64,000 bases of DNA from Verrucomicrobiia bacterium (lineage in GTDB: Bacteria > Verrucomicrobiota > Verrucomicrobiia > Limisphaerales > DSYF01). The number at the start of each line of letters is the position of its first letter. The stretch's first letter is position 1. Positions 39,447 through 42,143 of the stretch are shown piece by piece. The position numbers and the translations under genes were made by a program. Under the pieces are notes generated by a model. The model ran no database searches. It had not been told where the DNA came from and saw nothing but the letters and a program-made list of their open reading frames with translations. The stretch lies in contig DASTWL010000080.1 in NCBI GenBank assembly GCA_035765895.1, positions 8,597 through 72,596 on the forward strand, given 5' to 3'.

Positions 39447-42143
39447 TCACCCAAACAAATCCATTTGCGGCGGCGGAAGCTGCTGGAGCTTCTCGCGTTC
39501 GGCACGGTGGCGGGCGGGCTGGCGAACGTTGCCTTCGGGCGTGAGTTCGCTTTCTTCCAGGTTGCGCAGGATCACCTTCGCGCGCTCGATCACGGGCTTG
39601 GGCACGCCGGCCAGGCGCGCGACGTGGATGCCGTAGCTCTTGTCGGTGCCGCCTTCGACAATTTTGCGCAGAAAAACAATTGAGTCGTTCCATTCGCGCA
39701 CGGCGACGTTGAAATTTTTTACCCACTTCAGGCGGCCGGCGAGTTCGGTGAGTTCGTGATAGTGCGTGGCGAAGAGCGTCTTCGCGCCCGCCTGATTATG
39801 CAAAAATTCCACGATGCTCCACGCGAGGCTGAGGCCGTCGAAGGTGCTGGTGCCGCGGCCGATCTCGTCGAGCACGATGAGGCTGCGCAGTGTGGCGTTG
39901 TTGAGGATGTTCGCCGTCTCGCTCATCTCGACCATGAAGGTGGATTGCCCGCGCCCGAGGTCGTCGCTCGCGCCGATGCGGGTGAAAATGCGGTCCACAA
40001 GGTCCACACGCGCCGCGGCAGCGGGCAGGAACGCGCCGGTGTGGGCCAGCAACGCCAGCAGCGCCACCTGCCGGATATAGGTGGATTTGCCCGCCATGTT
40101 CGGTCCGGTGATCAAAGCGATTTGGGGGAATGCGGAGTGCGGAACGCGGAGCGCGGAATCGGGGCTTGTAGTCCCGCCTTCAGGCGGCTCGGACGGTTGC
40201 GTGTCATTCGCGGGACCGCCTAAAGGCGGGACTACGAGCGAAGAAGCCAGCGCCACATCATTCGGCACAAAGCGTTCCTCGATCAACTGCTGCTCCAGCA
40301 CGGGGTGACGGCCTTCGCGGATGAGCAGCACGCCTTCGTCGCGCACTTCGGGGCGGCAATGATTGAACAGGCGCGCGGTCTCGGCGAAGGACGCGAGCAC
40401 GTCGAGTTGCGCGAGGGCGCTGGCGGTCTGCTGGATTTGCGGGAGCTGGCCGAGGACTTCCTCGCGCACGCGCTGGAAGAGTTCGTATTCGAGCTTCTCG
40501 CTGCGTTCCTCGGCCCCAAGAATTTTGCCTTCCATCTCCTTCAACTCGGGTGTGATGAAGCGCTCGCCGTTGGCGATGGTCTGCTTGCGCGTGTAATGCG
40601 GCGGCACCTTGTCGAGGTTCGCCTTCGTGACCTCGATGTAATAGCCAAAGACGGAGTTGAACCCGACCTTGAGCGAGCTGATGCCGGTGCGCTCGATCTC
40701 GTCGCGCTGGAGTTTGGCGATCCAATCCTTGCCGCCGCGCGCGGCGGCGCGCAGTTCGTCCAGCTCGGCGCTGAAGCCGTCGCGGATGATGCCGCCCTCT
40801 TTCAACGCCAGCGGCGGTTCGTCCACGATGGCGCGGGCAATCAACTCGACGAGCGTGGGGAGTTCGGTGAGTTGGGCAGTGAGGGAATCGAGCAGTGGGA
40901 CAGGCATCTTGCCTGTTTCGTGAAGCGTGGACGACGCAAAGGTTTCTGAAAGTTCGTTTGGCTCATTGGACAGGCTGGAAGCCTGTCCCACTACGGCGGA
41001 GAGCATTGCGCGCAGGCCGGGAATCTGCTCCAGTGCGATGCGCAGGGCGAGCAGGTCGCGGGCGTTGCCGGAGCCAGTGCTGAGGCGGCCCAGCGTGCGT
41101 TCGAGATCGCGCACTTCGGTGAGCTGCGCGCGGAACTGATCGAGCGCGGGGGAATTATCCAGCCACGCCTGCACGGCGTCCTGACGTTGGCGAATGGGCT
41201 CGACGGCGGCGAGCGGTTGCGAAAGCCAGTCGCGCAGGCGACGGGCGCCCATCGGCGTGACGGTGCGATTCAGCGCCTTGTAAAGCGAGCCGGGCGGCGG
41301 CGCGTCCTTGTGCAGCGGTTCGAGGATTTCGAGATGACGCAGCGTGGTGCCGTCGAGCACGAGGAAGTCGCGGCATTCGTAGCAGGTCAGCCGCGTGAGA
41401 TGCTTGATGTCGCGGCGCAGATGTTGCGTGAGGTAATGCAGCACCGCGCCCGCCGCGCCAATGGCGGCGTTCTTGTTCTTCAGCCCAAAGCCATCGAGCG
41501 AAGCGACGCCGAAATGTTCGCGGAGAGTGAACACCGCCGTCTCCGGTGCGAAGGTCCAGTCCTCGTGCGGAATGAGGATCGGGAATGCAGGCTGGATCAA
41601 CTCACGCAAGGAGCCGGCTTCGGAAGGAAAAATGATCTCCGCCGGGCGCAGGCGGTCCAGTTCCGTGAGCAACGCGGCTTCGCTGTCGATTTGCGTCACT
41701 TTGAAATCACCCGTCGTGAGGTCCACCAGCGCGAGGCCGATAGTTTTTCCGGCGGCGAGCACCGCCGCGAGGAAATTGTTTCGCTCGGCGGTGAGCATCC
41801 GTTCGTCGAAGTGCGTGCCGGGCGAAAGGATCTGCGTGACCTCGCGTTTGACGAGCTTGCCGGGCTTGGCGTCCTCCATCTGGTCGCAAATGGCGACTTT
41901 GCGGCCAGCCTTGAGAATGCGGGCGATGTAGCCGTTCGCCGCATGAAAAGGCAGGCCGCACATCGGGACGCCATTCCGCTTGGTGAGGGCGAGGTTGCAG
42001 AGCTGAGCCCCTGCTTGTGCGTCCTCGAAAAACATCTCGTAGAAGTCGCCGAGGCGGAAGAGCAGGAGCGCGTCCTTGGGCAGTTCGCCTTTGATGCGGC
42101 GATACTGCGCCATCATGGGAGTAAGTTGGGCTTCGGCGGCCAT
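39447..42143 (-). CDS. mutS: DNA mismatch repair protein MutS
   Basis: N-terminus LTPMMAQYRRIKGELPKDALLLFRLGDFYEMFFEDA, Walker A GPNMAGKSTYIRQ, then STFMVEMSETANIL, DEIGRGTSTFDG and FATHYHELT. Confidence 0.95.
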   Translation of the reverse strand: MAAEAQLTPMMAQYRRIKGELPKDALLLFRLGDFYEMFFEDAQAGAQLCNLALTKRNGVPMCGLPFHAANGYIARILKAGRKVAICDQMEDAKPGKLVKREVTQILSPGTHFDERMLTAERNNFLAAVLAAGKTIGLALVDLTTGDFKVTQIDSEAALLTELDRLRPAEIIFPSEAGSLRELIQPAFPILIPHEDWTFAPETAVFTLREHFGVASLDGFGLKNKNAAIGAAGAVLHYLTQHLRRDIKHLTRLTCYECRDFLVLDGTTLRHLEILEPLHKDAPPPGSLYKALNRTVTPMGARRLRDWLSQPLAAVEPIRQRQDAVQAWLDNSPALDQFRAQLTEVRDLERTLGRLSTGSGNARDLLALRIALEQIPGLRAMLSAVVGQASSLSNEPNELSETFASSTLHETGKMPVPLLDSLTAQLTELPTLVELIARAIVDEPPLALKEGGIIRDGFSAELDELRAAARGGKDWIAKLQRDEIERTGISSLKVGFNSVFGYYIEVTKANLDKVPPHYTRKQTIANGERFITPELKEMEGKILGAEERSEKLEYELFQRVREEVLGQLPQIQQTASALAQLDVLASFAETARLFNHCRPEVRDEGVLLIREGRHPVLEQQLIEERFVPNDVALASSLVVPPLGGPANDTQPSEPPEGGTTSPDSALRVPHSAFPQIALITGPNMAGKSTYIRQVALLALLAHTGAFLPAAAARVDLVDRIFTRIGASDDLGRGQSTFMVEMSETANILNNATLRSLIVLDEIGRGTSTFDGLSLAWSIVEFLHNQAGAKTLFATHYHELTELAGRLKWVKNFNVAVREWNDSIVFLRKIVEGGTDKSYGIHVARLAGVPKPVIERAKVILRNLEESELTPEGNVRQPARHRAEREKLQQLPPPQMDLFG
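40132..40235. repeat. Repeat block inside mutS: four tandem GCGGARY heptads, then a 20-bp inverted repeat
   Basis: GCGGAGT GCGGAAC GCGGAGC GCGGAAT at 40132-40159. GTAGTCCCGCCTTCAGGCGG (40168-40187) pairs with CCGCCTAAAGGCGGGACTAC (40216-40235), 19/20 complementary. Confidence 0.8.
40900..40988. repeat. Two short palindromes inside mutS sharing a GACAGGC core
   Basis: ACAGGCA-TCT-TGCCTGT (40900-40916) and GGACAGGC-TGGAA-GCCTGTCC (40968-40988). Confidence 0.75.

Follow-up and report, generated by a model that had tools for sequence, protein, structure and literature searches.

The stretch of DNA analysed here, referred to below as the window, comprises 64,000 nucleotides from a Verrucomicrobiia bacterium of the Limisphaerales (contig DASTWL010000080.1, assembly GCA_035765895.1), and it carries an intact mutS gene whose reading frame holds two short palindromic elements, A and B, each within a peptide insert of the same letter. 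The encoded protein contains all five MutS Pfam domains (E-values 1e-24 to 5e-83), and structures of Escherichia coli MutS match it at E = 5e-186 as three blocks split by the two inserts. The Walker A motif GPNMAGKST, the DEIGRGTS motif, and the N-terminal mismatch-binding motif GDFYE are kept, and with domains I–V, the Phe-X-Glu motif, and both Walker A and Walker B in place, the product is a canonical MutS (MutS1) mismatch-repair ATPase. Element A is read here, with a probability of about 0.85, as a GTAG-tagged doublet of repetitive extragenic palindromic (REP) units that sits in frame in mutS at a loop of normally 2–4 residues and resembles the non-autonomous REPINs (REP doublets forming hairpins).

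Insert A lies between FVPNDVAL, which ends at residue 632, and QIALITGPNMAGKST, which starts at residue 674, and directly precedes the strand leading into the Walker A loop, or P-loop. An earlier interpretation made without database searches (the sequence-only reading) had claimed about 40 extra residues before Walker A, in good agreement with the 41 found here versus 4 (residues 604–607) in E. coli MutS, a net excess of 37. It had also held that only a handful of residues separates the two conserved blocks in other MutS proteins, and had proposed an alignment of orthologues as a check. Among the diverse MutS representatives whose flanking motifs could be located, 121 of 124 have 2–4 residues at the position of insert A (site A), and distant metagenomic MutS proteins (42–55% identity) all have 3–4 residues there, with no inverted repeat. 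The site is also empty in several relatives at 61–74% identity (L126, L129, and L131–L133), whereas all of the 120 closest orthologues, which share 75–94% identity and come from Verrucomicrobiota/Limisphaerales metagenome-assembled genomes (MAGs) by their source names, carry 13–62 residues (mean 35). Site A was therefore originally empty, and the claim and its check both stood.

Element A has the architecture of a GTAG-tagged, REPIN-like REP doublet, in that a stem-loop, a GTAG tag, and an inverted pair with a spacer are all present. Its arms of 24 nt are 92% complementary and 28 nt apart, which makes the inverted repeat slightly longer than the 20 bp reported earlier at 40168–40187 and 40216–40235; the CCGCC...GGCGG mini-palindrome noted for each arm is a CCGCC-N4-GGCGG stem in both. 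GTAG stands at the outer end of both arms, at 40168–40171 on the plus strand and at 40232–40235 on the minus strand (CTAC on the plus strand). The 20-nt arm pattern, with up to three mismatches, occurs twice in the window, both times in element A, where shuffles give an expectation of 0.00, and the mRNA strand of the element folds at −50.5 kcal/mol versus −25.4 ± 3.2 in shuffled sequences (z = −7.8; none of 200 shuffles as low). The palindromy is thus above chance, a point that had been left for checking. In each orientation, element A has a single open frame out of three, and its near-palindromic sequence means that the stop-free phase is open whichever way it lies. The four GCGGARY heptads described earlier at 40132–40159 are present beside it; Tandem Repeats Finder treats the tract as imperfect (40127–40158, with either period 7, 4.6 copies, and 80% matches, or period 14, 2.3 copies, and 88% matches). 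No target-site duplication is found at element A, since the coding strand has TCTTC ahead of the left arm and CCCCGAT behind the right one, which do not form a direct repeat. Miniature inverted-repeat transposable elements, which the sequence-only reading had named together with REPs, combine terminal inverted repeats with a target-site duplication, and of these two features element A has the repeats only. Neither the window nor ten loci that have the element contain a match reaching the gathering score of an Rfam family; the sole sub-threshold match over element A, a miRNA at E = 0.66, was judged meaningless.

In an AlphaFold model built on 64 sequences (mean predicted local distance difference test score, pLDDT, 87.6; predicted template modelling score 0.85), residues 391–415 and 634–668 are coil with stretches below pLDDT 50, while the strands flanking insert A (628–633 and 675–679) and the P-loop helix are confidently modelled. 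Insert A is compatible with an intact MutS, and on this model its likeliest reading is that of a disordered loop tolerated between intact strands beside the P-loop, as had been proposed before. An intein or another protein-splicing insert was ruled out, since Pfam recognizes MutS domains only and the insert is 41 residues of low-confidence coil.

Element B is a second in-frame doublet, of a family different from that of element A, and occupies a loop of domain III. Its coding strand reads GTAG-TGGGACAGGC-TTCC-AGCCTGTCC, followed by a 53-nt spacer and then by ACAGGC-AAGA-TGCCTGTCCCA-CTGC. The inverted repeat is 23 nt long and 87% complementary, each arm has a stem of 7–9 bp, and of the two outer ends one bears GTAG and the other CTGC, which departs from CTAC by a single mismatch. 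The fold reaches −48.2 kcal/mol (z = −7.2). Elements A and B are the top two short-range inverted repeats of the window, and nothing comparable is found elsewhere in it (Table 1).

Table 1. Features of the mutS locus; positions refer to the window.
Feature	Position	Strand	Details
mutS coding sequence	39447..42143	minus	898 aa, intact; open reading frame list and translation, Pfam, E. coli MutS match
Insert B	40887..40991	minus	codons 385–419, MutS domain III; 35 aa versus 6 in E. coli MutS
Element B, second REP doublet (ACAGGC family)	40894..40992	minus	arms 40894–40916 and 40970–40992
Insert A	40125..40247	minus	codons 633–673, 41 aa (ASSLVVPPLGGPANDTQPSEPPEGGTTSPDSALRVPHSAFP); E. coli MutS alignment
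Element A, GTAG-tagged REP doublet (REPIN-like)	40164..40239	minus	76 nt; one long hairpin
Element A, gene-proximal (5') arm	40216..40239	minus	coding strand GCTC-GTAG-TCCCGCC-TTTA-GGCGG
Element A, spacer	40188..40215	minus	28 nt, encodes GPANDTQPSE
Element A, gene-distal (3') arm	40164..40187	minus	coding strand CCGCC-TGAA-GGCGGGA-CTAC-AAGC
Heptad tract	40127..40159	minus	imperfect; (GCGGARY)4 on the plus strand, encodes SALRVPHSAF; Tandem Repeats Finder

The sequence strings for the repeat families were GTAGTCCCGCCTTNAGGCGG, the arm of element A, and ACAGGCTTCCAGCCTGT / ACAGGCAAGATGCCTGT. A scan with the 20-nt arm GTAGTCCCGCCTTNAGGCGG, covering one genome per species, returned more than 120 stretches of other genomes among the matches listed, mostly as inverted doublets. 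By label, the bearers belong to Verrucomicrobiota, Planctomycetota, Acidobacteriota, Lentisphaerae, Kiritimatiellae, Chloroflexia, and others (L004–L123), and include both MAGs and complete genomes; some of the labels, such as Heliomicrobium, Chitinophaga, and Clostridia bins, may reflect mis-binned contigs. In a typical copy, GTT[CT]GTAGTCCCGCCTTNAGGCGG is followed by a spacer of 11–73 nt and by the inverted copy, so that the flanks GTT[CT]...[GA]AAC are shared. Most copies lie between short open frames and are hence intergenic, and some MAGs contain several. The family of element A is therefore multi-copy in many genomes other than its source and usually intergenic. Together with the empty sites in relatives, these copies support the in-frame insertion of a REP-like element that the sequence-only reading had proposed. 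An alternative would have the insert arise by in-place duplication and drift as a lineage-specific low-complexity linker, palindromic by accident, and would suit its richness in P, G, S, and A, the disorder predicted for it by the model, and its variable length among orthologues. Such an origin is scarcely credible, however, for a segment whose arm 20-mer recurs exactly, as inverted doublets, at so many unrelated loci of other genomes, has a chance expectation of 0 in the window, and bears GTAG tags, and whose counterparts include both relatives with empty sites and an orthologue with one family at two mutS sites (L204, see below).

Not all of these copies are intergenic. The arm family also occurs in frame in a peptidase U32, a Ser/Thr kinase-TPR protein, a DMFA2_C protein, a DUF7133/cytochrome c protein, and a SWIM protein, and the copies in these five hosts always read VVPPxGG...PPxGGTT, because only one of the three phases is stop-free and it is open both ways. 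Long open reading frames (ORFs) spanning the arm in L010, L021, and L099 are likely spurious antisense frames and were excluded from the in-frame insertions. None of the five confirmed in-frame hosts in other genomes is a repair gene, and the sample therefore gives no independent support for a bias toward repair genes.

Elements of this kind have already been described. Di Nocera, De Gregorio and Rocco (2013, BMC Genomics 14:522; PMC3733652) sorted REPs into GTAG and CGTC superfamilies, reported GTAG families in the Planctomycetes-Verrucomicrobia group, and described inverted REP dimers with spacers of 20–100 bp as well as a GTGG variant of the tag. According to the same survey, REPs inside genes are most numerous in the verrucomicrobium Opitutus terrae, more than half of the insertions within genes consist of dimers or of repeats in groups that encode 20–30 amino acids, sometimes with two per gene, and many of the hosts are replication or repair genes, namely uvrA, uvrD, polA, recBCD, dnaE2, and ligase. 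The doublets in mutS share with these intragenic dimers the outer GTAG on a GC-rich stem-loop, the inverted pairing across a spacer of 20–100 bp, the location within an ORF, the verrucomicrobial host, the function of the host gene in repair, the presence of two inserts in one gene, and, in some orthologues, the GTGG variant. The difference is that mutS is absent from the text and the intragenic table of PMC3733652, insofar as these were available, and the mutS doublet is therefore an addition to an already described class. Likewise, the available part of that paper was not found to hold the turnover of families at two fixed loops across a clade, the spacer flips, the arm conservation beyond synonymous sites, or the occurrence of an identical 20-nt arm in several phyla.

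Two further systems invite comparison. REPINs and their REP-associated tyrosine transposases, or RAYTs (Bertels and Rainey 2011, cited in PMC3733652; PMC8049555), are similar in that an inverted REP pair forms one long hairpin and the doublet appears to be the unit of copying, with the asymmetric loops TTCC and AAGA kept here between separate copies. In contrast, REPINs are by definition extragenic and tied to a RAYT of the same genome, whereas both doublets studied here lie within the mutS reading frame and no RAYT could be linked to the source genome. The Rickettsia palindromic elements (RPEs; Ogata et al., cited in PMC3733652), to which PMC3733652 relates the intragenic REPs, are likewise palindromic repeats inserted in frame in genes whose proteins remain functional, and they are interpreted as insertions tolerated in loops, albeit in another bacterial lineage and with another sequence family. 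The same paper assigns the intragenic RPE-4 and RPE-6 of Rickettsia conorii to the CGTC-type REPs and gives RPE-1 as longer.

The comparison of orthologues reveals that the contents of the two loops vary widely. Site A holds at least nine peptide families among the 120 orthologues: VPPLGG/PPKGGT, GAPxS/AGSETGAP, TGVAPV/DRRDACPT, ERGLQP/PEGRAP, SPSPPQSGGEGRGEV, IADCRLPI/IGNRQSAI, GRADLPVGQDAQQRVPT, GRAGTPLPA/AEDCAP, and GRESAPS/RLTSAAT. A similar spread is seen at the position of insert B (site B), and inverted repeats tagged with GTAG or GTGG are found at the insert in the DNA of every orthologue examined. The sequence-only reading would have been abandoned had orthologues carried a homologous, non-repetitive segment here; instead, their inserts are repetitive, palindromic, and of different families. 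Replacement of families is fast, as L003 (94% protein and 89% DNA identity to the query, the MutS of the window) has another family at site A and the same family at site B, and L001 (92% protein identity) has the same family at site A, with one difference in the 5' arm of element A, and another family at site B. Some inserts (e.g. those of P0032, P0057, P0060, and P0003) are inverted arrays of perfect heptanucleotide repeats and not REP hairpins; reading IADCRLPI...IGNRQSAI or SAIRNPQSAI, they represent a different repeat class in the same loops.

Inserts of 58–62 residues result from stacking. At site A of L208, which encodes the MutS of P0043, two different doublets stand next to each other, FGVPPSGG...PPKGGT and then GAAPASG...EAGAP, and the peptide of P0017 suggests a comparable side-by-side arrangement. 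Two adjacent doublets are the pattern expected from insertion beside a resident element and subsequent deletion, and L208 thus suggests that new units land beside resident ones. In L204, the ACAGGC family of element B is present at both MutS sites (4900–5010 and 4231–4247), with the loops TTCC and AAGA in both, and because these asymmetric loops are kept, the doublet appears to be copied as a unit.

Spacers, too, have been rearranged. At site A, the query has a spacer that matches those of L001 (score 16, p < 0.002) and L207 (score 5, p = 0.006) as the reverse complement, while the spacers of L001 and L207 align directly with each other (score 11). Since the sequence just outside the arms of element A is common to the query and L001, the spacer has evidently flipped in place. 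An inversion of the site B spacer, suspected from the peptides, was dropped, since neither orientation yielded supporting alignment scores when the two spacer groups were compared.

Hairpin-loop inversions between short inverted repeats are known from chloroplast non-coding DNA, where the spacer is likewise found in either orientation between conserved inverted arms. Unlike the chloroplast case, the flip in mutS lies inside coding sequence, and the reading frame survives it, since either orientation of the near-palindrome leaves the same phase open.

These flips, together with the heptad tract, bear on the suggestion that the site is a slippage or recombination hotspot modulating mutS, or, in its strongest form, a contingency locus at which heptad slippage or spacer inversion reversibly turns MutS off or alters it, giving rise to mutator subpopulations. 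The 7-nt unit is not a multiple of three, so that a slip by one unit shifts the frame; L001 lacks exactly 21 nt, that is, three units, of a tract that about 14 of the closest orthologues share; and the spacer is found either way round among orthologues, each orientation being open in frame. Even so, a switch of this kind is very improbable. With 80% matches, the imperfect heptads are a poor substrate for slippage, and the sole length difference seen is the in-frame one of 21 nt. All recovered orthologues are in frame, which could partly reflect the way in which they were found. Furthermore, about 30% of synonymous sites differ between the lineages that the flips set apart, which makes the flips rare evolutionary events, and no invertase or recombinase is seen adjoining mutS in the window or in relatives. 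The hotspot suggestion is consequently left unsupported, the gap in L001 and the flips being its only, and indirect, points.

Conservation of the arms is of a different order. In the 24-pair helix of element A, 96.9% of the cells are paired across four orthologues, and four pairs have changed on both sides; one of them went from T-A to G-C in the tag and another from C-G to T-A. L204 has a double change that preserves the local hairpin of one arm. Between the query and L001, whose mutS genes are 69% identical at four-fold sites, about 3 of 60 positions in the arms of element A are different. The 44-nt arms of element B, with the loops TTCC and AAGA included, are identical in the query, L135, and L206, even though four-fold sites of the same genes are 51–58% identical and the spacers no longer align; L205 differs only in the tag region. 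It is conceivable that the hairpins are functional and selected at mutS, where they might regulate expression, stability, or recombination, either as a structure of the mRNA or DNA or by binding a protein. The near-invariance of the arms, the substitutions that preserve both long-range and local pairing, and the high stability of both elements (z about −7 to −8) would all be expected then. Selection for such a function is nonetheless unlikely, given that both loops hold unrelated families in other lineages and some relatives are empty, which implies that MutS requires no particular insert sequence, and that arm-to-arm conversion, together with re-seeding or conversion from copies of a transposase-fixed family, could explain the conservation as well.

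A related idea, to be taken as tentative and rather doubtful, is that the two MutS loops are long-lived, fixed "nests" of REP doublets across a verrucomicrobial clade, with hairpin arms under maintenance at the sequence level. Identical arms are shared by genes close to saturation at synonymous sites, compensatory changes occur in them, and spacers and even entire repeat families are replaced around them. If so, the hairpins might have been co-opted, for example, for control of mutS expression or as a site recognized by a transposase; alternatively, insertion might be targeted to resident hairpins, and the essential gene might serve as a protected reservoir for the repeat family. Co-option would be in keeping with the excess of such inserts noted earlier in repair genes, for which there has been no explanation.

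For the in-frame REP doublet, it is logical to envisage the following course of events. The element would have arrived by the single-strand, hairpin-dependent transposition ascribed to RAYTs, and selection would then remove copies that are out of frame or damaging, leaving those that are stop-free, in phase, and located in loops. A stretch that tolerates one insertion could receive further REP units beside the resident, while older units would be deleted, and through cycles of insertion and deletion one codon position might eventually be occupied by different families from lineage to lineage. The arms would presumably be kept complementary by pairing or recombining with each other, which would also flip the spacer occasionally.

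Several observations weigh against this account. First, the arms are far better conserved than those of a passively decaying insertion, which neutral "tolerated junk" does not predict; as passive tolerance fails here, the hairpin must either be under selection or be converted or re-seeded repeatedly from copies elsewhere in the genome. Second, the search for other copies that the sequence-only reading had proposed succeeded in other genomes but not in the window, where no further copy of either element is present (for element A, with up to three mismatches; with a 14-nt core, one mismatch), and singlets with GTAG or GTGG plus a hairpin are not enriched there, with 6 found versus 4.8 expected. 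Third, no RAYT gene came to light among the 25 commonest of the 49 Pfam families in the window, and the only RAYT-like lead lies in another genome, at L135, with a sub-threshold match to Pfam Y1_Tnp (E = 0.19). Finally, no target-site duplication is visible, so there is no positive footprint of transposition, although its absence fits RAYT/IS200-type chemistry.

The lead in L135 is as follows. At 6 kb from mutS, an ORF beginning ...LPHWRQDGATYFVTFRLAD has a doublet of the element B type (14484–14590) at its 5' end. Read in frame, this doublet gives VGQASSLS...ETGRKPAP; the region with the doublet and the ORF is 14484–14742, and the ORF runs off the locus. The HUH-like motif VVMPNHxH is found in homologues of this ORF, mostly truncated proteins, of which some bear the label "putative transposase". 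A 94-residue fragment of the ORF has no match in Pfam or NCBIfam, a profile of the homologues recovers nothing relevant in the PDB, and a motif scan of all fetched loci finds no further RAYT-like ORF near copies of element A. Judged by its sequence, the ORF with its doublet is possibly a RAYT-like gene accompanied by its repeat. In P0271, a truncated RAYT-like homologue is followed immediately, on the opposite strand, by a gene for a group II intron reverse transcriptase (RVT_1 and GIIM), an arrangement that may represent the insertion of an intron into a RAYT-like gene.

The mutS doublets extend by one gene the set of repair genes known to contain GTAG REP dimers. Where palindromic repeats sit in frame in essential genes, selfish DNA manages to persist although purifying selection is strong, and conserved enzymes acquire disordered loops. 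While the kind of element is already described, its comparative behaviour at the two MutS loops is the part that deserves a dedicated look. Unlike intergenic copies, the element has a fixed orthologous address in mutS that can be traced over more than 100 related genomes, and at this address the gain, replacement, and stacking of families, the flips of spacers, and the conservation of arms far beyond the neutral rate can all be read. REPIN-like maintenance and the targeting of existing hairpins thereby become testable with public data alone. For annotation, the elements explain odd peptide motifs, such as VVPPLGG/PPKGGTT, GQASRLS/ETGKMPVP, and DRRDACPT, that recur in proteins of Verrucomicrobiota, Planctomycetota, and Acidobacteriota.

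As for the surroundings of the gene, ammonium transporter and P-II genes adjoin mutS in L001, L205, and L206, and a P-II gene alone does so in L003. A protein of the Ammonium_transp family is present in the window, and an ORF at 42521–43909 (plus strand, 462 aa) occupies the matching position beside mutS; the Pfam scan of the window did not tie the Ammonium_transp match to this particular ORF. Also encoded in the window are a protein with a REase_MTES_1575 domain, an RCC1-repeat protein, and two GYF_2 proteins.

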